Assembly: GCA_045593885.1 (NCBI GenBank)
Contig: JAZNXN010000006.1
Span: 5,283-69,282 of the forward strand
Length of the DNA stretch: 64,000 nt
Direction: 5' to 3'
Origin: Eubacteriales bacterium
GTDB lineage: Bacteria > Bacillota > Clostridia > Oscillospirales > CAG-272
Positions 1 to 64,000 of this stretch are shown in pieces. Position 1 is the stretch's first letter, and each line of letters opens with the position of its first letter. The position numbers were made by a program, and so were the translations under genes. The notes beneath the pieces are model-generated. The model did not search any database. It had not been told where the DNA came from and was given only the letters and a program-made list of their open reading frames with translations.

Positions 1-1651
1 GCTCTGCCCTCAGGCACTCGCATTTTTCATCCGCCGCCCTCTTGTCGTTTTCGAGTGTGCGGTATTCCTTCACGGCAGAGGAAAGCGCGTATGTGCCGTC
101 AATATAATTTTCGTATTCGGTTCTGTATTTTTCAAACAGGGTGTCGAGCCTTTTTGCAATTTCGGCGGCGTTTTTCTCATCCTCTGCGCGACTGTTCTCT
201 TTCTCGTTGTACTCAAAAACGAGAGTGCGGTAGCGCTCCGTGTCGGACAAAAAGAGCTGTGCCTCGTCCATATTGTAGCCGTACGGTGCAATAAGGGGTA
301 AAAGCTCGGCGTTGGGAAGGGCGGTTGCCATAGCCGTGCGCCTGAGAAGGTATATAAATCCGTTTGCCATTTCGCCGATAAAGCCGAGCACGATAACGGC
401 AATAGCGGCATACAGATTAACGCCCACGAGGGCGACACCCACGCTTATCACTGCCGCAAGAAGTCCTGCCGCAGCTGCGTAGGGAGCTGTTTTTTTCTTG
501 GTTTGTGTGGGGGCGGCTTCACTTGCGAGTGCCCGCACCCTTTCAATCAGCGAATCGCTCGGCTCGTTTACTGAGAATCGCTTTTCAAGGCGGGAAAGCT
601 CCGCACTCTTCTCTGTCGGCATCAGCCGCACGCGGTACTCGCCGTGCTTTTTGGCGAGCCCCTTGGCATCCGAAAGCTCGCTGTCCGAGGGGATACCGTC
701 GGCAAAGCGTGCGGAAAGCACACTCAGCCTCTCAGCTCTTTTCTCGTCAAGAGGGGCTGATTTGACCTCTCCGTCAAGCCTTGAAATTTCCCTGTCAAGC
801 TCTGCTATTTCCTCGCATTTTTCCTTGCTTGGAATACCCGAAGGGTATTTTTTAACGAGTGTTTTCCTTTTCTCGTCAAGCTCCCCGATATCCGAAAGCA
901 GCTTTTTGTAATTCTTCTGTCTCTCGGCTACAAGAGCCGCCTCTCTCTGTCGCTTATCCGTCTGCTCAAGCTCTGTCAGCGTTTTCCTTTTTTCCTCTAG
1001 CTGAGCCTTACAGGCGAGAAGCTTGTCATTTACTCCGTCAAGCTCCTTTTTACGAAGCAGGCAATCGTATTTTCTCATATCATTTTCAAATATTGCTCCG
1101 CCGCGCCTGCCCTTGTGGCGATATTTCTTCTTTATTTCCTCGAGCTTATCTATAGCATCCTCTGCGCTCACCCTGCCGATTTTCAGCGGGCTGAGCTTCT
1201 CGCTTATATCCCCGCCGACCTCGGTTGAGGTATCGCCGAGCGAGAAAAACGCGGTACGCATAAAGGAGTCGGCGTTAAGACCGAATATTTTCTCGCCGAC
1301 AGCCTCGATATTCTGCCTGTGTCCGCTACCGTCATAGACCTCAAGGATATCCTTTTTCTCGGATTTTTTGTCAAATCTTCTCTCTATTACATACTCGAAA
1401 TCCTTGCCCGCGACGGTGAGAGAGCCGCCGAACACTGCGCCAGAAATCGGGTAATATTTTTCCCTGTCCGACATTTCCCTGTCGGTTGAGCGAGAGGTTT
1501 TCATTCCGTAAAGCATTGCACGGATAAAGGCGGCAAGAGTGCTCTTTCCCCCACCGTTATCCTTAAGAATACAGGTGATTTTTCCGTCAAAATCAAGGGT
1601 TTGGTTGACGAGCATTCCGAAGCCCTCAATATGACATCTGACTATTCTCAT
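1..1651 (-). CDS. Rad50/SbcC-like AAA ATPase with central hydrophobic helices (YhaN-like); 3' end runs off the window
   Basis: My translation of the minus strand from ATG at 1651 (MRIVRCHIEGFGMLVNQTLDFDGKITCILKDNGGGKSTLAAF...) stays open to position 2 (550 codons). It is absent from the ORF track because there is no stop in the window. Walker A GGGKST, long K/E/L-rich coiled-coil stretches, two hydrophobic helices. ATGA start/stop overlap with the upstream phosphoesterase gene. Confidence 0.7.
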   Translation of the reverse strand, partial: MRIVRCHIEGFGMLVNQTLDFDGKITCILKDNGGGKSTLAAFIRAMLYGMKTSRSTDREMSDREKYYPISGAVFGGSLTVAGKDFEYVIERRFDKKSEKKDILEVYDGSGHRQNIEAVGEKIFGLNADSFMRTAFFSLGDTSTEVGGDISEKLSPLKIGRVSAEDAIDKLEEIKKKYRHKGRRGGAIFENDMRKYDCLLRKKELDGVNDKLLACKAQLEEKRKTLTELEQTDKRQREAALVAERQKNYKKLLSDIGELDEKRKTLVKKYPSGIPSKEKCEEIAELDREISRLDGEVKSAPLDEKRAERLSVLSARFADGIPSDSELSDAKGLAKKHGEYRVRLMPTEKSAELSRLEKRFSVNEPSDSLIERVRALASEAAPTQTKKKTAPYAAAAGLLAAVISVGVALVGVNLYAAIAVIVLGFIGEMANGFIYLLRRTAMATALPNAELLPLIAPYGYNMDEAQLFLSDTERYRTLVFEYNEKENSRAEDEKNAAEIAKRLDTLFEKYRTEYENYIDGTYALSSAVKEYRTLENDKRAADEKCECLRAE

Positions 1652-31848: not shown

Positions 31849-31897
31849 ATATTTGTTAAAAAATAAACTATCATATAAATTGAAACGGAGAAATGTT

Positions 31898-34126
31898 ATG
31901 AGAGAAGAATGGAAGGATTTCGTGCCCGGCTCGTGGCAAACCGAAATTAACGTAAGAAGCTTCATTCACCACAACTACACCCCCTACTATGGCGGTGATG
32001 AATTTCTCGAGGGTCCTACCAAGGACACGCTTGACCTATGGGAAAGGGTTAGTGAGCTGAAAAAGCAGGAAATAGATGCGGGCGGAGTGCTCGATATGGA
32101 TACAAGAGTAGTATCCACGATAACCTCGCACGGCCCCGGATATATAGATAAGGATAAGGAAAAAATTATAGGTCTTCAGACCGATATGCCCTTGAAGCGC
32201 TCGCTTCAGCCCTATGGCGGTATCCGAATGGCGATGAAGGCGTGCAAGGACAACGGCTATGCGGTTGACCCCGAGATAGTTGAGTTCTTCACCGAGCACA
32301 GAAAGACGCACAACGCAGGCGTTTTCGATGCGTACACACCCGAAATGAGAAAGTGCCGTTCCAACCACATAATTACCGGTCTGCCCGATGCGTACGGACG
32401 CGGAAGAATTATCGGCGATTACCGCCGTGTTGCCCTGTACGGTGTTGACAGGCTTATTGAGGATAAGCAGAGGCAGAAGGAGGCTACTCAGGGCTCTATG
32501 ACCGCGGATATAATCCGTGACCGAGAGGAGCTGTCCGAGCAGATTCGCGCCCTCGAAATGCTGAAAAAGCTGGCAGAAATCTACGGATGCGATATTTCAA
32601 GGCCCGCAACGACACTGAAGGAAGCAACTCAGGCGCTCTACTTTGCATACCTTGCGGCAGTTAAGGAGCAAAACGGCGCGGCAATGAGCCTTGGAAGAAC
32701 CTCAACGTTTCTTGATATTTACGCCGAGCGCGATCTGAAAAACGGCACAATAACCGAGAGTGAGGCTCAGGAAATCGTTGACCATTTTGTTATGAAGCTG
32801 CGTATGGTTTGCTTTGCAAGGACACCCGATTACAACGCAATATTTGCAGGCGACCCCACGTGGGTTACCGAGTCTATCGGCGGTCTTGGCACTGACGGAC
32901 GTCCTCTGGTTACGAAGATGTCGTTCCGTTACCTCAATACCCTTAACAATATCGGTGCGGCTCCGGAGCCTAACCTGACTGTTCTTTGGTCGGAGCATCT
33001 ACCTGAGGAATTTAAGAGATACTGCGCGAAGATTTCGATAAAGCATCATGCGCTCCAGTATGAAAACGACGACCTCATGCGTCCGATGCACGGTGACGAT
33101 TATGCTATCGCGTGCTGCGTATCCTCGATGAAGCTCGGCAAGGAAATGCAATTCTTCGGCGCACGTGCAAATCTGGCTAAATGTCTGCTCTACGCAATCA
33201 ACGGCGGTGTTGACGAAATCAGCGGTGAGCAGGTCGGCCCCGAATACCGCCCTGTTGAGGGAGATATTCTCGACTATGATGACGTAATGGCAAAATATAA
33301 GGATATGATGAAGTGGCTGGCTGAGGTCTACGTCAACACGCTCAACATTATCCACTATATGCACGATAAATATTCCTACGAAAGACTCCAGATGGCCCTG
33401 CACGACAAGCACGTAAGACGTTGGTTTGCTACGGGCATTGCAGGATTTTCGGTGGTTGCAGACTCGCTCTCCGCCATCAAGTATGCCAAGGTTAAGGCTA
33501 TAAGGAATGAAAAGGGCATCGTCACCGATTTCATCACCGAGGGCGATTTCCCGAAATACGGAAACGACGACGACAGAGTTGATAGCATCGCAAAAGAGGT
33601 GCTCTCTATGTTCATTCACTGCCTGCGTCAGAATCAGACCTACCGCAACGGCATAATCACAACCTCTATTCTCACGATAACCTCAAACGTTACCTACGGA
33701 AAGAATACAGGCTCTACCCCCGACGGCAGAAAGGCCGGCGAGGCGTTTGCGCCCGGTGCTAACCCCATGCACGGAAGGGACAGCAGCGGTGCGGTTGCAT
33801 CTCTTGCCTCGGTTGCGAAGATTCCGTTCATTGATTCGCAGGACGGTATATCCAACACGTTCACGATTATCCCCTCTGCGCTCGGAAAGACGGACGAGGA
33901 GAGAGAGGCAAACCTCGTTGCTCTGCTCGACGGCTACGGACGCAAGGGCGGCTTCCACCTCAACGTAAACGTATTTGACAGAGAGCTTCTGCTCGACGCG
34001 CAGAAGCACCCCGAGCTGTATCCTCAGCTCACGATTCGTGTATCGGGCTATGCGGTTAATTTCATCAAGCTGACAAAGCAACAGCAGGATGAGGTTATAT
34101 CGAGAACCTTCCACTCGGAAATATAA
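31898..34126 (+). CDS. pflB: formate C-acetyltransferase (pyruvate formate-lyase)
   Basis: 742 aa from ATG 31898. Catalytic CC (IACCVS) and C-terminal glycyl-radical motif RVSGYAV. Confidence 0.95.
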
Positions 34127-34848: not shown

Positions 34849-34878
34849 AAAAAGCGTTGCGTGGCAACGCTTTTTTTA
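34849..34878 (+). terminator. intrinsic terminator after pflA
   Basis: AGCGTTGC-gtg-GCAACGCT-TTTTTT. Confidence 0.8.
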
Positions 34879-34898
34879 CACACAGAAGGGTATAAATG

Positions 34899-34929
34899 AA
34901 AAGTCCAACCGTGAGGTTGGGCTTTTTTG
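34899..34929. terminator. second hairpin between convergent pflA and lemA (likely lemA operon terminator)
   Basis: AGTCCAACC-gtga-GGTTGGGCT with an A-run upstream and a T-run downstream. Confidence 0.5.
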
Positions 34930-57227: not shown

Positions 57228-58073
57228 TTACTCGTTTTCGGAGGAGTTATCCTCTTCCTTATTCTTCTGAACGTATATTACTACCTTACGGTTATTATCT
57301 GTACCTATCGAATTGGTGGTAACACCCTCGATACCGTGTACCTCGGAGTGTATTATGCGTCTTTCGTACGCGTTCATCGGCTCGAGAACGACGCTGCGGT
57401 TATCGCGCAGAGCCTTTGCCGCCTTCTTGCGTGCAAGGGCGCGCAGGGTTTGCTCTCTCTTGGAACGGTAGCCCTCTATATCAACGGTAACTCTTGAGCG
57501 GTCACGCTCGCCCTTGATGTTCTTCTTGATGCAAGCGAGGTTTGAGAGATACTGAATCGAATCGAGCGTATCGCCGTGATGACCGATGAGGGTGCCTGCC
57601 TCCTCGCCCGAGATTATAATTCTGCGCGAGCCGTTGGAGCACTTGTAGAGCTTCGCCTCCGCCTTGATGCCGAGATTTGCAATAAGGGTGTTTATGAGGT
57701 CGAGCGAGCGATCCTCGCCCTTCTTTGCATCCACAGGCTCGAGAGTTACGTCCTCGTCATCCTCGTCGGGCTTTTCCTCCTCCGCCTTCTTGGGTGCTGC
57801 CGCCTTCTTTTTCTTCTCCTCGGCAATTGCCTTCTTTATTGCTTCCTCGTCAGGCTGTCTTTCGTGTCTGCGCCTTGCGGGTGTGGGGTCCTCGACCTCC
57901 ATATACGCCTTGATTTTCGTGGGCTTCACACCGATAATTCCGAGAATACCGTTGCTGCCAAGCTCGATTATTTCATACTGTACGTCGTCAAGAGGTCCTG
58001 CGCCGAGCGCCGCCTTCGCATTTTCAAGCGCCTGCTCAAGCCCCTTGCCTGTTGCCATTACTTCCTTTTTCAT
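57228..58073 (-). CDS. jag: Jag/KhpB RNA-binding protein (Jag_N, KH, R3H)
   Basis: N-terminal Jag domain, K/E/A-rich linker, KH-like region and R3H (ERRIIHSEV); position after yidC. Confidence 0.9.
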   Translation of the reverse strand: MKKEVMATGKGLEQALENAKAALGAGPLDDVQYEIIELGSNGILGIIGVKPTKIKAYMEVEDPTPARRRHERQPDEEAIKKAIAEEKKKKAAAPKKAEEEKPDEDDEDVTLEPVDAKKGEDRSLDLINTLIANLGIKAEAKLYKCSNGSRRIIISGEEAGTLIGHHGDTLDSIQYLSNLACIKKNIKGERDRSRVTVDIEGYRSKREQTLRALARKKAAKALRDNRSVVLEPMNAYERRIIHSEVHGIEGVTTNSIGTDNNRKVVIYVQKNKEEDNSSENE

Positions 58074-58093
58074 TTTATTTATCCCTTTAAGTC

Positions 58094-59188
58094 TTATTTT
58101 TTCTTGTTTGAGTCGGTTTTCATTTTAGCCTGTCCAACATTCTTGTTGGGCGCTTTCCTCTGGGGAGGAAGCTGACGTGCGGGAACGTCATCGTCATCCT
58201 CGTCAATATAGTGCAGAGAACGCACGGGTGCCGAGTCGTCACGGCAGGTTATTCTGTTGGGGTCGGAATATACTCCGCGATTCTTCTTCATTTCCTTCTG
58301 CATCATTTTAAGCTCCTCGTCCGTGTACTTGGGAAGGGGCATAGCGTATGCAAGGATAATGCTCTGAGCTGCTCCGAGAACGGTCTGATATATCCAGTAA
58401 AGGCCGAGTGCCGCGCTGAAATTGAAGGCGAAGAACAAGCTCATCAGGGGCATAGCAAAGTCCATTATCTTCATAGACGTCTGCTGGTCGGGTGTCTGCG
58501 CTACCTGAGTATTAGCCATGAATTTTCTCGTGAGCTTCATCGAAGCAAACGAGGTCACGAATACGAGTATCGGAATTATAACCAGCCAGCTGAAGTTAGA
58601 AAAGCTCGGAGTTTCTCCAAGGCTCTTGCCGAACATCATAAGGTTGGGTATATCGGCACCCGCAAATTCCTGAATTCCGTCAAAGGCATTAGGTTCTACA
58701 GCTAATTTCTCGTTAATCTTCGCTATAAGCTGTATTTCCTCCGAAGCATTTCCGCCCACAATACCTGCAATTGTGGAAATAATTCCGTTGGAAACCGTTC
58801 TGTCGGCAGAAAATACTCTGAGCCAGGTGAGCGGCTTGCGTACCAGCTCGTAAAGTCCCATAATGACAGGGAGCTGGATAAGCAAGGGAAGGCATCCTGC
58901 CCAGGGGCTCGCGCCTGCCTGAGTCTGAAGGTCCATTATCTCCTGCTGCTTTTTACGCAGGGTTACCTGGTCGTTTCTGCCCGCATACTTTTTCTCAATA
59001 AGGAATATCTGCGGACGCAGCTTTGCCATTTTAATCTGATTTTTCTGCTGCTTGATGCCGAGAGGCAAAAGCAGAATTTTTACAAACAGTGCAAATAAAA
59101 GCAGAGCCCCTGCGTAATGGGGAATTATCATGTAACAGAATCTGAACACGAAGCTGAAGGGCCATGCTATAATTTCAAGAAATCCCAT
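58094..59188 (-). CDS. yidC: membrane protein insertase YidC/SpoIIIJ family
   Basis: 60-kDa inner-membrane-protein core (..LPLGIKQQKNQIKMAKLRPQ...GCLPLLIQLPV..). Long basic C-terminal tail. Confidence 0.92.
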   Translation of the reverse strand: MGFLEIIAWPFSFVFRFCYMIIPHYAGALLLFALFVKILLLPLGIKQQKNQIKMAKLRPQIFLIEKKYAGRNDQVTLRKKQQEIMDLQTQAGASPWAGCLPLLIQLPVIMGLYELVRKPLTWLRVFSADRTVSNGIISTIAGIVGGNASEEIQLIAKINEKLAVEPNAFDGIQEFAGADIPNLMMFGKSLGETPSFSNFSWLVIIPILVFVTSFASMKLTRKFMANTQVAQTPDQQTSMKIMDFAMPLMSLFFAFNFSAALGLYWIYQTVLGAAQSIILAYAMPLPKYTDEELKMMQKEMKKNRGVYSDPNRITCRDDSAPVRSLHYIDEDDDDVPARQLPPQRKAPNKNVGQAKMKTDSNKKK

Positions 59189-59197
59189 TTCAAAATC

Positions 59198-59494
59198 CTA
59201 TTCTTTATTTTCTTTGGTTGTGTCACCCTCATATTTTTCCGTCATGCTCTTATAGGTATTCCCTTCAAGCTTTTTCATTTTTCTCGGCGGAACGGGGTCG
59301 TATCCGCATTTGCAGAAGGGGTTACAGCGCAAAATGCGCCATACCGAAAGATACATACCGACAAAAAATCCCCTCTCGCGAAACGCCTGTATCGCGTATT
59401 CCGAGCAGGTTGGACTGAACCTACAGCTCGGGGGTTTTATGGGTGATATTAATTTTCTGTATATGCTGATTAGCCATATAAAAACGTATTTCAC
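59198..59494 (-). CDS. yidD: membrane protein insertion efficiency factor YidD
   Basis: YRKLISP...CRFSPTCSEYAIQA....G...G..L...RILRCNP; GTG start overlapping the rnpA stop. Confidence 0.9.
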   Translation of the reverse strand: MKYVFIWLISIYRKLISPIKPPSCRFSPTCSEYAIQAFRERGFFVGMYLSVWRILRCNPFCKCGYDPVPPRKMKKLEGNTYKSMTEKYEGDTTKENKE

Positions 59495-59877
59495 CTTTTT
59501 TCACCAACGATGAGGTCTAACCGCATAAAGCTTTTTTTGAGCTGCTCTGCCAGCTCTGTTGATTTCATACCGACTATCGACTCGCGCGCGACAATCACTA
59601 TGAGAAAGCCCGTCTTAACAATACATTCGTTGACAACCTGACGGTAGGCTGCCCTCATTATCCGTTTTGCCCGAGAACGCTCGCAGGCTCCGCCAATCTT
59701 CTTGCTGACCGTAAGACCTACGCGGTTTACGGTTAAATGCTGGGGGTGCGATTTTCTCAGTATCTTTGCCTTATAGTCGGGGAGAAGGTGTACGGCTATC
59801 GCCGAGCTCACCGCCCTCTTACCCTTTGAATACGCCTTGGAATACAGATGATTTTCGCAAAGTGATGTTATTTTCAT
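59491..59877 (-). CDS. rnpA: ribonuclease P protein component
   Basis: Basic 128-aa protein with RNR-like motif (RAKRIMRAAYR); downstream of rpmH. Confidence 0.9.
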   Translation of the reverse strand: MKITSLCENHLYSKAYSKGKRAVSSAIAVHLLPDYKAKILRKSHPQHLTVNRVGLTVSKKIGGACERSRAKRIMRAAYRQVVNECIVKTGFLIVIVARESIVGMKSTELAEQLKKSFMRLDLIVGEKR

Positions 59878-60002
59878 AAATCATCCGTCCTCTCTTTTTT
59901 GTTTTGATGTCTTTACTTGCTTTTGCCGTGATTTTCTAAAACAAAACCCCCGAGGCGCATACGCAGCGATGTCGGAGGTTTTCGCATAGGGGTTACCCCT
60001 GA

Positions 60003-60137
60003 TTAATATGTGAGCTGTGCTCTACCCTTGGCACGTCTTCTCTTGAGAACCTTTCTGCCGTTAGCGGTAGCCATTCTCTTTCTGAAGCCATGCTCTTTCT
60101 TTCTCTGTCTTTTCTTAGGCTGATATGTTCTTACCAT
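60003..60137 (-). CDS. rpmH: 50S ribosomal protein L34
   Basis: [44 protein letters not shown] (44 aa); ATG 60137 follows AGGAGG. Confidence 0.95.
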
Positions 60138-60272
60138 AGCTATCTCCTCCTTACTTAACGTTAATGTGATGGCGAGGCAAAATCCCCGCGTATTCATACA
60201 AAGACAAGTTATTATACAATACTAAATGCGTTTTGTCAAGAGTTTTATAAAAAACTTTTTATTAATTAAAAA

Positions 60273-61106
60273 TTATTTTTTGCTGTCGCACGGCTCGTAA
60301 TAGACGGTTCTGCCCGCCTCGATCGAGCGCGTGAGCCAGACACTCGCGCCGATAGTGCAGTTGTCGCCAACAAAGGTTTTTCCGCCGAGAATGGTTGCGT
60401 TTGCGTATATTACGACGTTGTTTCCTATGTTGGGGTGTCGCTTGATATCCTTGACGGGATTGCCGTCTTCGTCGAGCTCAAAGCTCTTAGCCCCCAGCGT
60501 TACGCCCTGATAGAGCTTGACGTTATTTCCTATAACCGTGGTTTCGCCTATTACAATACCCGTACCGTGGTCGATGAAGAAATACTCGCCTATCGTCGCG
60601 CCTGCATGGATATCAATTCCAGTTTTGCCGTGAGCGTATTCGGTCATCATTCGGGAAATGAGAGGAATACCGAGTATGTAGAGCTCGTGCGCCATACGAT
60701 AAACCGATATAGCGTAGAAGCCGGGATAGCAGAGGAGCACCTCCTCGCGACATTTTGCGGCAGGGTCGCCGAGGTAGAGAGCCTCTATATCCTTGACGAG
60801 CAGAGCCTTGATTTTCGGGAGCGTTGCTATAAACCTATCGCACATTTGGGCGCTGACCGACGAATCCTCTCCGACGAAGGCGTATGCTCTCTCTATCTGC
60901 GAGCCGAGCCTTGCGCGGACGAGCGCGAGCGCCTCCGACACGGTAATTCCCGACATCCCCTTGAAAAAACCGGGGAACATCAACGACTGCAAATCTCCTA
61001 TTATCTGTGCTATCGCATCCCTCGACGGAACGAGAGAGGCATCCTTGCTCTTTATCTTTTCCTTTCCCTCATTCGTCAGGGCGAGGGCTATTTCATTTAT
61101 ATTCAT
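60273..61106 (-). CDS. cysE: serine O-acetyltransferase
   Basis: SATase N-domain plus hexapeptide repeats (GIDIHAGATIG..FFIDHGTGIVIGETTVIG..V.LYQGVTLG). ATG 61106 lies 1 nt after the cysK stop. Confidence 0.9.
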   Translation of the reverse strand: MNINEIALALTNEGKEKIKSKDASLVPSRDAIAQIIGDLQSLMFPGFFKGMSGITVSEALALVRARLGSQIERAYAFVGEDSSVSAQMCDRFIATLPKIKALLVKDIEALYLGDPAAKCREEVLLCYPGFYAISVYRMAHELYILGIPLISRMMTEYAHGKTGIDIHAGATIGEYFFIDHGTGIVIGETTVIGNNVKLYQGVTLGAKSFELDEDGNPVKDIKRHPNIGNNVVIYANATILGGKTFVGDNCTIGASVWLTRSIEAGRTVYYEPCDSKK

Positions 61107-61107
61107 C

Positions 61108-62037
61108 TCACACCTCAAACAAATCTCCCGACAGATACCGAGTACCCGAATCGGGGAAAATCACTACTATCCGCTTGCCGCGGTTTTCGCTGCGCTCTGC
61201 AAGCTTTATTGCGGCAAAGAGAGCTGCGCCCGATGAAACACCTGCCAGCACCCCCTCGGTTTTAGGCAGCATTCGCGTCATTTCGAAGGCATCGTCATCC
61301 GACACCGCTATTATCTCGTCTATAACCGAGCGGTCAAGGTTCTCGGGCACAAAGTTTGCGCCTATGCCCTGAATTCTATGCGCCCCGCTCACGCCCTTTG
61401 TCAAGAGGGGTGAGGACAGAGGCTCAACGCCGACAACCTTTATATCGGGGTTTTTGAATTTTAAGTATCTGCCGACGCCGCTGACGGTGCCGCCCGTACC
61501 TATTCCCGCGACAAAAATATCTATTTTTCCGTCGCATCCCTCCCAGATTTCAGGTGCGGTTGACTCTGCGTGAGCCATAGGGTTATCGGGGTTATAGAAC
61601 TGACCGGCTATCACGCTGCCGTCAATTTGGCGGCGCAGCTCCTCAGCGCGAGCAACCGCCCCGTTCATACCGAGTGCACCGTCGGTGAGGACAACCTCTG
61701 CTCCATATAAGCGCATAAGCTTTATTCTTTCGACCGACATCGTATCGGGCATAACTATTATTGCGCGCATACCGAGCGAGGCGCAGACGGCGGCAATTCC
61801 TATACCCGTATTACCCGAGGTTGGCTCGATTATCACACTGTTTTCATTAATTTCACCGCGTGCGAGCGCGCCCTCTATCATTCTGAGCGCTACTCTGTCC
61901 TTTATACTTCCCGCAGGGTTTTGCATTTCAAGCTTCGCCACTATCTCGGCAGAAAGCCCGTATTTGTCGGCTATGCGCGTAAGGCGCAGAAGCGGCGTTT
62001 TTCCTATAAGCTCGGAAAGCGAGGCATATATACTCAT
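61108..62037 (-). CDS. cysK: cysteine synthase A (O-acetylserine sulfhydrylase)
   Basis: IGKTPLLRL..., PLP lysine region NPAGSIKDR, GIGTGGT loop. ATG 62037 follows GGAGG. Confidence 0.93.
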   Translation of the reverse strand: MSIYASLSELIGKTPLLRLTRIADKYGLSAEIVAKLEMQNPAGSIKDRVALRMIEGALARGEINENSVIIEPTSGNTGIGIAAVCASLGMRAIIVMPDTMSVERIKLMRLYGAEVVLTDGALGMNGAVARAEELRRQIDGSVIAGQFYNPDNPMAHAESTAPEIWEGCDGKIDIFVAGIGTGGTVSGVGRYLKFKNPDIKVVGVEPLSSPLLTKGVSGAHRIQGIGANFVPENLDRSVIDEIIAVSDDDAFEMTRMLPKTEGVLAGVSSGAALFAAIKLAERSENRGKRIVVIFPDSGTRYLSGDLFEV

Positions 62038-62063
62038 TTTTTCCTCCGTAATAACCATAATAT

Positions 62064-62092
62064 TAAAAAATGGGGTATGCCGTGCACACCCC
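62064..62092 (-). terminator. leader terminator (attenuator) upstream of cysK
   Basis: Minus strand: GGGGUGUGC-acg-GCAUACCCC-AUUUUUU. It lies 26 nt upstream of the cysK start (16 nt upstream of its GGAGG RBS) and 12 nt after the leader-ORF stop. Confidence 0.7.
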
Positions 62093-62104
62093 GCCAAGTA
62101 CAGC

Positions 62105-62179
62105 TCACGCTATCGCATAACGAAAGGGCACGACAGTTATCCTCGTGCAACAGCAACAGTTAAACGTAAAATTCATCAT
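62105..62179 (-). CDS. candidate cysK-cysE leader peptide MMNFTFNCCCCTRITVVPFRYAIA
   Basis: ATG ATG AAT TTT ACG TTT AAC TGT TGC TGT TGC ACG ... TGA. Four consecutive Cys codons at 62158-62147. It is the 3' part of track ORF 62105..62308. The SD is weak. Confidence 0.55.
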   Translation of the reverse strand: MMNFTFNCCCCTRITVVPFRYAIA

Positions 62180-62215
62180 ACTACAACCGCGAAAGCCTTT
62201 CGTTTTACTGTGAAT

Positions 62216-62244
62216 AGTATAACACATTTTTTGTGCATAATCAA
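62216..62244 (-). promoter_or_regulatory. promoter TTGATT-17-TATACT (TGt extended -10) for the cys leader
   Basis: Minus strand: -35 at 62244-62239, -10 at 62221-62216. Confidence 0.55.
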
Positions 62245-62315
62245 GTATATTTTGAAATTTCCGACTGTAACGGCTCAAAATACATGCGTTTTGGGTACAT
62301 TTTTTCAAAAATCAG

Positions 62316-62344
62316 TTGATTTTTGTCGGGTAATGTGTTAATAT
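62316..62344 (+). promoter_or_regulatory. promoter TTGATT-17-TAATAT for hom (divergent from the cys promoter)
   Basis: TTGATT 62316-62321, TAATAT 62339-62344. Confidence 0.5.
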
Positions 62345-62372
62345 GTTTATATAACAGCAAGGAGATTAAAGG

Positions 62373-63563
62373 ATGATTAACATTGCAATACTCGGCTGCG
62401 GCGTTGTAGGCGGCGGCTGTGCCTCGCTAATCGTTGAAAACAAGAAAATGCTCGAGGCTCTGGCAAAGGATACGGTAGAGATTAAGTATATACTCGACCT
62501 GCGCGATATGCCCGACAGTCCCTTTGCCGACAAAATGGTGAAGGATTTTAATATAATACTTGAGGACTCAGAGGTTGACGTGGTTATTGAAACCATGGGT
62601 GGCGCACGTCCTGCATACGATTTCACCCTTGCTTGCCTCGAGTCAGGCAAGCACGTGGTTACCTCAAACAAGGAGGTTGTCAGCAAGTTTGGCGACACTC
62701 TGCTCGAGGCGGCGCGCAGGGGAGGTGTCAACTATCTCTTTGAGGCGAGCGTGGGCGGCGGAATACCCCTGCTCCGCACAATAACCGACGGAATTGCAAG
62801 CGCGAATGAAATAACCGAAATCAGCGGTATACTCAACGGTACGACCAACTATATACTTACCCGTATGTTCGGCTCGGGCGCGAGCTTTGAGGCGGCGCTG
62901 GCTGAGGCGCAGGAAAAGGGATATGCAGAGCGCAATCCGTCCGCTGACGTTGACGGTATCGACGCGGCGCGCAAGACCAATATTTTAGCGGCACTCGCGA
63001 CGGGCAAGCTGGCAGGCGAGGAGCTGATACACACAGAGGGTATCACAAAAATCAACGGTGATGACGTTAAGAGTGCCAAGAAATACGGCGCTGAGATAAA
63101 GCTGCTCGGCAGAGTTGTCAAGACCGAGGGCGGAACCTACGCATACGTTGCTCCGCATTTTGTTCCTCACTCGAATATGCTCTCAAACGTATCGGGGGTT
63201 TACAATGCGGTATCGGTCAGCGGTAACTATATTGGCGATGCGCTCATCTACGGACAGGGTGCGGGAGCAAAGGCTACTGCGAGCGCGGTAATTTCCGACG
63301 TTGCAAACATTATCAGCGGCAAGGAAACGCGAGCAGCGAGGAGCTTTGAGCGCGATAACAGCTTCCCCTCGGATTTTTCGGGCTTTTGCTGCAAGAGATA
63401 CGTGCGTTTTTCCGACGGCGAGAGCTTAGATAAGGCAGTTTTGGTATTCGAAAATGCAAAAATTCTCGAAAAGAACGCTATAATCACCCCCGAAATGAGT
63501 GAGAAGGAATTTTCCGAAAAGATTTCGGTATTTAAGGTTGAGAACGTAATACGGGTTCTCTGA
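62373..63563 (+). CDS. hom: homoserine dehydrogenase with C-terminal ACT domain
   Basis: MINIAILGCGVVGGG..., catalytic-domain motifs (NKE, EASVGGGIP); 396 aa. Confidence 0.92.
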   Translation: MINIAILGCGVVGGGCASLIVENKKMLEALAKDTVEIKYILDLRDMPDSPFADKMVKDFNIILEDSEVDVVIETMGGARPAYDFTLACLESGKHVVTSNKEVVSKFGDTLLEAARRGGVNYLFEASVGGGIPLLRTITDGIASANEITEISGILNGTTNYILTRMFGSGASFEAALAEAQEKGYAERNPSADVDGIDAARKTNILAALATGKLAGEELIHTEGITKINGDDVKSAKKYGAEIKLLGRVVKTEGGTYAYVAPHFVPHSNMLSNVSGVYNAVSVSGNYIGDALIYGQGAGAKATASAVISDVANIISGKETRAARSFERDNSFPSDFSGFCCKRYVRFSDGESLDKAVLVFENAKILEKNAIITPEMSEKEFSEKISVFKVENVIRVL

Positions 63564-63570
63564 AAGCTAT

Positions 63571-63603
63571 AAGGCTGTCGCAAATACGACAGCCCTTTTT
63601 TTA
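63571..63603. terminator. bidirectional terminator
   Basis: GGCTGTCG-caaata-CGACAGCC-CTTTTTTT. Confidence 0.75.
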
Positions 63604-63614
63604 TTCTTACGGTT

Positions 63615-64000
63615 TTATACAGAGGGGAGCTCGTCGGATAGCTTCACTATACAGTAGAGGTTGATGAGAGTCATTGCTGAGCTGAGAAGGTCGCAGAAGC
63701 GCCACGCATAGCTCTCGTCAATGCAAAATCCGAGTACTATAAAGAGGGGGTATAGGGTAGTAAAGGTGCTTATCACCCATTTTTTGCGTGAAAAATACCT
63801 TACAGCGACCTGACCGTAATAAACCCACAAAACCATCGTGGCAAAGGCAAAGAAGAAGATTTCAAGCGTTATCAGCATAGGTGCGCTCGCACCGAAAACC
63901 GAGGAAAAGGCGCGGATAACAAGGCTCATGGCATTATCACCCCCTACGGTGTCGGTCACGCACAGTATTGCCACGGCGGTTAAGGTGCACATAAGAATTG
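63615..64000 (-). CDS. C-terminal part of an alanine/glycine:cation symporter (AGCS) family transporter; 5' end outside the window
   Basis: Hydrophobic C-terminal helices ..FFFAFATMVLWVYYGQVAVRYF.. resemble AGCS C-termini. The frame stays open to the window edge. Confidence 0.6.
   Translation of the reverse strand, partial: ILMCTLTAVAILCVTDTVGGDNAMSLVIRAFSSVFGASAPMLITLEIFFFAFATMVLWVYYGQVAVRYFSRKKWVISTFTTLYPLFIVLGFCIDESYAWRFCDLLSSAMTLINLYCIVKLSDELPSV

Follow-up and report, generated by a model that had tools for sequence, protein, structure and literature searches.

What controls cysK and cysE, the genes for cysteine synthase A and serine O-acetyltransferase, in a Clostridia-type bacterium whose cysK leader resembles neither of the RNA regulators expected in front of such genes? 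RNA-level control of cysteine and methionine genes in Firmicutes is usually exerted by the T-box, which responds to the transfer RNA (tRNA) tRNA-Cys, and by the S-box/SAM element. The locus lies in a stretch of 64,000 nucleotides (nt) from Eubacteriales bacterium (assembly GCA_045593885.1, contig JAZNXN010000006.1, positions 5,283 to 69,282 of the forward strand), referred to below as the window; coordinates are positions in the window unless another locus is named. The element in question is the leader between the cysK promoter and cysK. This leader is probably a lineage-specific, cysteine-sensing, ribosome-mediated transcription attenuator of cysK-cysE; as a candidate it is another case of a known kind and not a new mechanism. 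The attenuator reading was first made in a first-pass annotation of the sequence. Its anatomy, its spacing and conserved analogous leaders in relatives speak for it, and conservation, the Shine-Dalgarno (SD) sequence and folding with a single ribosome speak against it.

On the minus strand, an extended −10 promoter is followed by a 24-codon open reading frame (ORF), a hairpin with a run of six U residues (U6), and then cysK-cysE. Promoter, ORF, four Cys codons, hairpin and gene pair had all been described in the first-pass annotation, and all are present:

62244..62239, minus strand: promoter −35 element TTGATT, followed by a 17-nt spacer to the −10 element.
62224..62216, minus strand: extended −10 element TGtTATACT (TATACT at 62221..62216, with TG ahead of it).
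62196..62208, minus strand: 5′ strand of a helix termed P1, GUA.AACGAAAGG, containing GAAAGG.
62103..62200, minus strand: lineage-specific segment of ~97 nt, from alignment and flank inspection, with ends uncertain by a few bases.
62105..62179, minus strand: leader ORF (24 codons and a stop codon), MMNFTFNCCCCTRITVVPFRYAIA, read from the sequence.
62147..62158, minus strand: four tandem Cys codons, TGT TGC TGT TGC (codons 8–11).
62143..62148, minus strand: segment 1, GCACGA, which pairs with UCGUGC (62133..62128) in the minimum-free-energy fold.
62118..62135, minus strand: switch strand, made up of segment 2, UGUCGUGC (62135..62128), and CCUUUCGUUA.
62092..62072, minus strand: intrinsic terminator from a terminator scan, with a 9-base-pair stem and a 3-nt loop, GGGGUGUGC-ACG-GCAUACCCC.
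62070..62065, minus strand: U6 of the terminator tail, preceded by one A; the whole terminator spans 62065..62092.
62085..62078, minus strand: segment 3, GCACGGCA, at the terminator apex.
62047..62043, minus strand: cysK ribosome binding site (RBS) GGAGG, −9.5 kcal/mol.
61108..62037, minus strand: cysK, the first gene 3′ of the leader (TIGR01139, 412 bits against a cut-off of 351).
60273..61118, minus strand: cysE, overlapping the end of cysK by 11 nt.

The promoter matches 9 of 12 consensus positions in a consensus scan, with TG before the −10 element, and its spacing would place the start of transcription at ~62209. The ATG ATG at 62179 is the first in-frame start after this predicted site, at a distance of ~30 nt. 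The reading frame runs ATG ATG AAT TTT ACG TTT AAC TGT TGC TGT TGC ... TGA, and its stop codon (62107..62105) lies 12 nt ahead of the terminator hairpin. The first-pass annotation had located hairpin and U-run correctly, except that it carried the U-run to 62064, one base too far. Between the terminator and the cysK RBS is a gap of only 24 nt that contains no second promoter, so expression of cysK must cross the leader terminator. The public cysK protein, P0001 (316 amino acids, aa), begins at an in-frame upstream ATG (MVITEEK..., 62038..62058, minus strand); the position of GGAGG (62047..62043) and the length of homologues (307–310 aa) indicate that the true start is the ATG at 62037 (309 aa). 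A TTG-started frame of 40 codons (62156..62034) was considered as an alternative leader ORF and set aside; it runs through the terminator and has no SD or other support.

Runs of four Cys codons are rare in this DNA. The pattern (TGY)4 is found once in the 64-kb window when both strands are counted (128 kb of strand), at the leader ORF. Other runs, of the form (TGY)3, were rejected as candidates, all being off-frame or antisense within coding regions. In 160 more distant cysK loci (57–66% identity; 80 each from species-representative genomes and metagenomes, among the matches listed; 0.76 Mb), (TGY)4 occurs once in 1.51 Mb of strand. Among 20,000 shuffles of the leader that preserve dinucleotides, 0.065% encode CCCC in any forward frame. 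The chance of such a run in this one leader is about 1e-4 to 1e-3, and both the shuffles and the related strand support the earlier estimate of below 10^-3. The run consists of one hexamer repeated exactly in tandem, (TGTTGC)2.

In silico folding of the leader yields alternative helices that fit an attenuator. In the free leader the terminator hairpin has an energy of −14.6 kcal/mol and a pair probability of 0.998. Segments 1 and 2 form the 1:2 hairpin (−8.0 kcal/mol), so that the GCACGA/UCGUGC helix drawn by hand in the first-pass annotation is indeed part of the minimum-free-energy fold. In the same fold, helix P1 pairs 62208..62196 with CCUUUCGUU.UGC at 62127..62115; its core is a perfect 9-nt inverted repeat (62204..62196 with 62127..62119) recovered by a repeat search. 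Constrained and truncated folds show that the switch strand has two alternative sets of partners, one being segment 1 plus the 5′ strand of P1 and the other the 5′ arm and loop of the terminator. The three helices of the first-pass annotation were recovered, together with P1, which had gone unseen and competes for the switch strand. The free leader also folds weak AU-rich pairs near the start codon and a small hairpin over the stop codon, and leaves the cysK SD GGAGG essentially unpaired, both in the minimum-free-energy fold and in the centroid fold.

The proposed 2:3 antiterminator helix, UGUCGUGC/GCACGGCA, exists as a duplex of −11.6 kcal/mol and belongs to a larger competitor of −24.8 kcal/mol, with one helix between 62135..62128 and 62085..62078 and another between 62125..62118 and 62096..62089. 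For RNA in which the 3′ arm of the terminator has yet to be made, this competitor is the minimum-free-energy fold. When the 43 nt upstream of the terminator were shuffled, the competitor energy was −18.4 +/- 2.7 kcal/mol, as compared to −24.7 kcal/mol for the native sequence; 1.85% of shuffled competitors were as good, i.e., the native sequence beats 98%. Segment 1 is nearly a copy of segment 3 (UGCACGAGGAUA and UGCACGGCAUA), and segment 2 is complementary to either of them.

The position of a stalled ribosome relative to these helices can be modelled from its footprint. A bacterial ribosome covers roughly −12 to +15 relative to the first base of the P-site codon. With this assumed footprint, a ribosome that has Cys codon 8, 9, 10 or 11 in its A site would reach to ~62146, 62143, 62140 or 62137, respectively; with those ends, segment 1 would be covered and segment 2 (62135..) would be free. 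Under the same assumption, a ribosome that has reached the stop codon would end ~2 nt before the terminator stem. The modelled geometry at both positions matches the needs of the classical attenuator model.

From this anatomy we infer the start of transcription, translation of the ORF, ribosome stalling and a regulatory outcome. The signal sensed would be charged tRNA-Cys, and the output would be read-through into cysK-cysE. By default, with no stalled ribosome, P1 and the 1:2 hairpin would hold the switch strand, the terminator would form, and a transcript of ~145 nt would be released. When cysteine is plentiful, a ribosome reaching the stop codon would cover the switch strand, leaving ~2 nt before the stem, and termination would persist. 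When cysteine is scarce, the ribosome would stall with one of codons 8–11 in its A site, masking segment 1 and leaving segment 2 free. The switch strand could then pair with the 5′ arm and loop of the terminator before the 3′ arm is transcribed, and the antiterminated RNA polymerase would continue into cysK-cysE. This scheme would require that the 5′ strand of P1 be occupied during stalling, for example by an initiating or queued ribosome on GAAAGG/AUG.

Leader-peptide attenuation is classical for the trp, his, thr, leu and ilv operons of Proteobacteria. The window leader shares with those systems a promoter-proximal short ORF with codons for the amino acid of the operon, an intrinsic terminator before the first structural gene, predicted, mutually exclusive 1:2, 2:3 and 3:4 helices, and a stop codon placed such that a ribosome there would mask segment 2. 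It differs in its specificity for cysteine and in its target, cysK-cysE, as well as in its very weak SD, its absence from orthologous leaders, and the extra helix P1, which ties the switch strand to RNA 5′ of the ORF. The host also differs, being of Clostridia type, with its nearest CysK matches in Acutalibacteraceae and Clostridia metagenome-assembled genomes. Attenuators of the his type and with leucine-rich leaders have been reported in some Firmicutes (PMC2965389, PMC5794164).

Additional evidence comes from Cys-rich leader ORFs in front of cysK in other Clostridia. Among 144 distinct 200-nt regions upstream of cysK, six contain an upstream ORF (uORF) with an ATG start and at least three Cys in six codons. 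The same criterion was satisfied by 0.46 +/- 0.62 regions in shuffled sequences (maximum 3 in 200 shuffles) and by two in a reverse-complement control. Collapsing related copies reduces the six regions to an estimated four or so independent lineages, and the Poisson probability of at least four, given 0.46, is ~0.001 by our own arithmetic on these estimated lineages. Cys-rich leader ORFs are enriched before cysK in related Clostridia, and most of the 160 distant loci have simple short leaders.

The clearest of these cases is a family named here after locus L090, a human-gut contig in which the element spans 1266..1473 with the following parts:

L090 1266..1294: promoter, TTGACA-17-TATTAT.
L090 1343..1423: leader ORF, MTMKIMSAKCICCSICTCRCCCRRMP, preceded by the SD AAGGAG.
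L090 1450..1466 plus T-run: terminator, a GACGGC...GCCGUC hairpin with U6, ahead of cysK-cysE.

The family comprises ten loci (L090 and L168–L176) with nine distinct sequences; nine of the loci were fetched by way of five CysK proteins that are 78–94% identical, and across the family CysK is 78–99% identical to that of L090, with Oscillospiraceae bacterium as the source name. Promoter, SD AAGGAG, an ORF of exactly 26 codons with 6–8 Cys, and hairpin plus U-run are kept in all ten. The peptides follow the pattern M.MK...(C)CC.ICTCRC.C.RR.., and the leader ORF is unannotated, with no gene called at any fetched locus. Neighbouring genes vary (IMPDH, YitT or DUF4118, in three neighbourhoods). RNAalifold identified covariation in the terminator, with two pairs that each have four sequences changed on both sides, and a helix between the SD/AUG region and the ORF end. 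A strand at the ORF end, GUCGUCGCA, can pair with the 5′ arm of the terminator; this pairing holds in 95% of cells, for the most part at invariant positions and without two-sided covariation. There is no model of this leader in Rfam 15, and no description of it was found in the literature searched.

The L090-family leader and the window leader share the cysK-cysE operon and the order of promoter, SD-like purine strand, Cys codons, stop codon and terminator. In both, the purine strand pairs with a CCUU-containing strand at the ORF end that has an alternative pairing to the terminator 5′ arm. What sets the L090 family apart from the window leader is a strong SD (AAGGAG), 26 codons, 6–8 dispersed Cys, and conservation across CysK identities of 78–99%. 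Over 58000..64000, the best match of the L090-family covariance model, R1, is the window leader (62187..62065, 16.3 bits, E = 0.0075). Homology was rejected as unproven, since the score is no better than that of plain terminators, and a resemblance noticed by hand between CTGTCGTGCC / GTGCACGGC and CTGTCGTCGC / GTGCGACGGC is an anecdote only. The two leaders are therefore treated here as analogues. The L090-family leader, which comes from abundant human-gut Oscillospiraceae, is the more robust finding, and as a candidate for a new cis-regulatory family it is stronger than the leader of the window.

Two further kinds of Cys-rich uORF were observed before cysK. One family (L101 1357..1431, the same in L166, and L139 at about 457..513) encodes peptides ending in GRLCLCWRCC or GRLCICWHCCTG, with the pattern GRLC[LI]CW[RH]CC. 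Its CysK proteins are 97% identical and its leaders are strongly diverged, with Cys, Arg and Gly codons kept by way of synonymous changes. This family has no intrinsic terminator, so any control would differ, acting on translation or through Rho. The other is a single instance, in L100 at about 1401..1448, where a uORF, MKRVLSLRCCPVCTR, with SD GAGG lies ahead of cysK. In the predicted fold, the stretch CUUUCGCUCC, which lies just upstream of the Cys-Cys pair of this uORF, is complementary to GGAGCGAA, the RBS of cysK; the arrangement resembles the SD-unmasking design of mycobacteria.

A number of observations weigh against reading the window leader as an attenuator, and the first concern its distribution. 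A search of 5.8 billion proteins with the window CysK returned the protein itself, five relatives at 83–84% identity, and then none above 67%. Eight loci of the five relatives were fetched (L081–L087 and L177). These sister-lineage loci have the same gene order (hom, divergent cysK-cysE, then rpmH-rnpA-yidD-yidC). The −35 and −10 blocks are invariant in seven of them and also present in L177, and an intergenic alignment shows a cysK RBS identical to that of the window. The leader ORF and its Cys run are absent from all eight, an outcome that the first-pass annotation had named in advance as refuting its reading. The ~97-nt segment missing from these loci carries the entire ORF and the switch strand. 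The leader ORF is known from a single genome, and there is no conservation or covariation for it among the available orthologues. The Cys run could also have arisen by recent slippage on a Cys-Cys pair, in a single event.

Initiation of translation and folding raise further difficulties. The duplex of the leader ORF SD with the tail of 16S ribosomal RNA has an energy of −2.6/−2.8 kcal/mol, which is at background level: 53 long ORFs of the window have a median of −7.1 kcal/mol, and ATG triplets taken arbitrarily have one of −2.2. The SD is weaker than that of ~95% of these 53 ORFs, in agreement with a caveat of the first-pass annotation, and GAAAGG, which is SD-like, precedes the AUG by 16 nt, a distance too great for a standard SD. 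With ATG ATG present and the SD weak, no efficient translation start could be recognised for the ORF. The fold energy of the whole leader is unremarkable (z = −1.74). In an equilibrium model in which the lead stalled ribosome alone is masked, the terminator stays at P = 0.998, because the free 5′ leader re-forms P1 around the stalled ribosome; the first-pass antiterminator does not prevail under that condition. In the single-ribosome model, segment 2 is additionally captured by CGCGGUUG, which lies 5′ of the AUG. Masking the 5′ leader as well lowers the terminator probability only to 0.38–0.79. Finally, over the whole window the R1 match has E = 0.08, no better than an ordinary double terminator. 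The negative control in question is a pair of back-to-back hairpin + T-run terminators between convergent genes (34849..34928, plus strand), which scores 16.6 bits against R1.

The same mask model was applied to L090-type leaders, where the terminator probability was 0.78–1.0 with the lead ribosome alone and 0.0–0.5, for earlier Cys codons, with the 5′ part masked too. The attenuator reading was kept despite the single-ribosome result because conserved leaders (L090 and L173) fail likewise. This comparison suggests that failure to open the terminator is a weakness of the equilibrium model and not specific to the leader of the window.

The sister-lineage loci also show what remains when the ORF is missing. 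A homologous hairpin and U-run is retained, with L087 matching 62087..62060 at 89%. These hairpins are weaker than that of the window, at −9.4 kcal/mol (L087) and −5.3 kcal/mol (L081/L084) as compared to −14.6 kcal/mol. They lie only ~30 nt after the predicted cysK transcription start, without a recognisable sensor (L081 1487..1565, L084 2925..3003, L087 2103..2181, L177 190..273). Weak hairpins in ORF-less leaders would be expected if a strong terminator were tolerated only together with a sensor, and they would fit either gain or loss of the ORF segment; with two lineages and no informative outgroup, gain and loss are indistinguishable. Searches for further copies were negative. A promoter-pattern scan of metagenome contigs gave 0 matches; protein-guided scans of genome and metagenome contigs returned CysK of at most 66% identity among the matches listed, with the window's own genome not among them; and blastn-short detected no second copy of the leader in the window or the fetched loci. 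A repeated or mobile element was rejected as an explanation, the repeat search having turned up nothing beyond P1 and matches to promoter DNA that is not transcribed.

The alternative that survives best, although we consider it rather unlikely, is that the ORF is an untranslated product of chance in a ~97-nt lineage-specific segment, with a Cys run generated by TGTTGC slippage and with cysK-cysE regulated at the level of the promoter, or else by a constitutive terminator that leaks. An exact (TGTTGC)2 repeat is what slippage would leave, yet a coincidence of ~1e-3 to 1e-4 is still needed to place (TGY)4 in this leader. Chance would account for an SD at background level, but not readily for the ATG ATG start, the stop codon 12 nt before the terminator, and a segment 1 that falls exactly within the stalled footprint. 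The modest whole-leader z-score of −1.74 and a terminator that never opens in the single-ribosome equilibrium model are consistent with this view, whereas an antiterminator better than 98% of shuffles is not. Absence of the ORF from all sister-lineage loci with the same promoter and RBS likewise argues for it. However, the window terminator (−14.6 kcal/mol) is far stronger than those of the sisters, and without relief it would choke an essential biosynthetic operon. Simple short leaders in most of the 160 distant loci are also in its favour and have to be set against the conserved analogous elements before cysK in related bacteria.

It is improbable that the leader is instead a structured RNA switch, in which a protein, a small ligand or an uncharged tRNA binds the P1 / 1:2 domain and the ORF is incidental. 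A perfect 9-base-pair P1 does close a promoter-proximal domain with internal hairpins, the terminator has an exclusive competitor, and the weak SD speaks against translation. The domain is, however, absent from the sister-lineage loci, which argues against a conserved aptamer-like core; it has no second copy in the window or in any fetched locus, and the Cys run would be left unexplained. Nor does it match a known class. With Rfam (4227 families) at E up to 10 over 58000..64000, nothing credible was found in the leader, where the only match was to a spurious plant microRNA model (21.8 bits against a cut-off of 90). No T-box or SAM element was matched in that scan or at gathering scores over the whole window, the latter yielding one tRNA and one ZTP riboswitch. 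A regular expression for the T-box core gave no matches in 80 cysK upstream regions, which is weak evidence given the strictness of the expression. The leader has in common with the T-box and S-box its position before sulfur amino-acid genes and a terminator/antiterminator output; at ~145 nt it is too short for a T-box and lacks conserved T-box sequence.

Terminated riboswitch and attenuator transcripts that act in trans are known in other bacteria. It is nevertheless very improbable that the promoter-to-terminator unit, self-contained though it is with promoter, ORF and strong terminator, is a gene of its own for a Cys-rich micropeptide or a ~145-nt trans-acting small RNA with cysK read-through secondary, given that peptide and RNA are unconserved even in sister-lineage loci, that the 24 nt between terminator and RBS hold no other cysK promoter, and that the SD is weak.

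For the cys operons of Actinobacteria, leaders with Cys codons and no terminators have been predicted (PMC1262725). In Mycobacterium smegmatis, polycysteine small ORFs (sORFs) are leaderless attenuators acting at the level of translation (Canestrari et al., 10.1101/834739); they sense the supply of Cys-tRNA and appear to have evolved independently and repeatedly (10.1101/834739). The window ORF shares with them consecutive Cys codons in a short upstream ORF before cysteine-metabolism genes. The mycobacterial sORFs are leaderless, unmask the SD of the next gene and lack a conserved intrinsic terminator, whereas the window leader has its AUG ~30 nt into the predicted transcript, an unsequestered cysK SD and a canonical terminator as output element. 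Examined for a leaderless start and an SD-sequestering duplex, the window leader shows neither, and consecutive Cys codons are the only feature in common.

In Rhodobacterales, the uORFC-8-2 motif before cysS is a predicted ribosome-mediated attenuator with a terminator stem and U-run (PMC8632094). Like the window leader, it has tandem Cys codons, in its case inside the first stem, and ends in a terminator stem and U-run. It differs in that its target is a tRNA synthetase gene, its hosts are Alphaproteobacteria, it has two Cys codons, and 145 examples are available as compared to a single instance. No report of a Cys-codon attenuator for Firmicute cysK-cysE was found in the literature searched. 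The first-pass annotation had said as much, and on that point it stands; the kind itself has been recognised or predicted in Actinobacteria and Rhodobacterales (10.1101/834739, PMC1262725, PMC8632094).

Around the leader, hom is divergent and upstream of cysK-cysE, and rpmH-rnpA-yidD-yidC-jag lie downstream. The cysE product falls below the cut-offs of its best matches, TIGR01172 (158 bits, cut-off 211) and the EpsC-type serine acetyltransferase model (143 bits, cut-off 150); of its 281 aa, ~100 N-terminal residues fall outside the matched acetyltransferase core. The terminator scan found no terminator after cysE. A perfect promoter (12 of 12 positions, TTGACA-17-TATAAT) lies between cysE and rpmH at 60211..60239 on the minus strand, and the rpmH ORF, listed at 64 aa, probably begins at an internal ATG behind AAGGAGG, which would give a 44-aa L34. 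Elsewhere in the window, a ZMP/ZTP riboswitch (RF01750, 31737..31829, plus strand; 49.7 bits, cut-off 39) immediately precedes a 757-codon ORF (31853..34126).

Cysteine supply is central to strict gut anaerobes, through iron-sulfur proteins and redox balance, and control of cysK-cysE in Oscillospirales-type bacteria is uncharted territory, with the usual Firmicute T-box and S-box absent here. It is possible, and proposed only tentatively, that the ~97-nt module is a cysteine attenuator caught at its origin or as the last copy to survive and that, together with the L090 and GRLC[LI]CW[RH]CC families, it reflects the repeated, independent appearance of Cys sensors before cysK in gut Clostridia. 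The module, placed between a conserved promoter and a pre-existing hairpin that is strong only in this lineage, would then carry an ORF in which a Cys-Cys hexamer is duplicated, together with a strand complementary to that hairpin. Repeated evolution of this kind, if true, would amount to a Firmicute counterpart of the mycobacterial “Cys ribulon”, one not described in Rfam 15 or in the literature searched. The attenuator itself, if true, would be a protein-free sensor of charged tRNA-Cys, testable by a handful of point mutations, and the window and its sister-lineage loci would form a natural before-and-after pair for the rise or decay of an attenuator.

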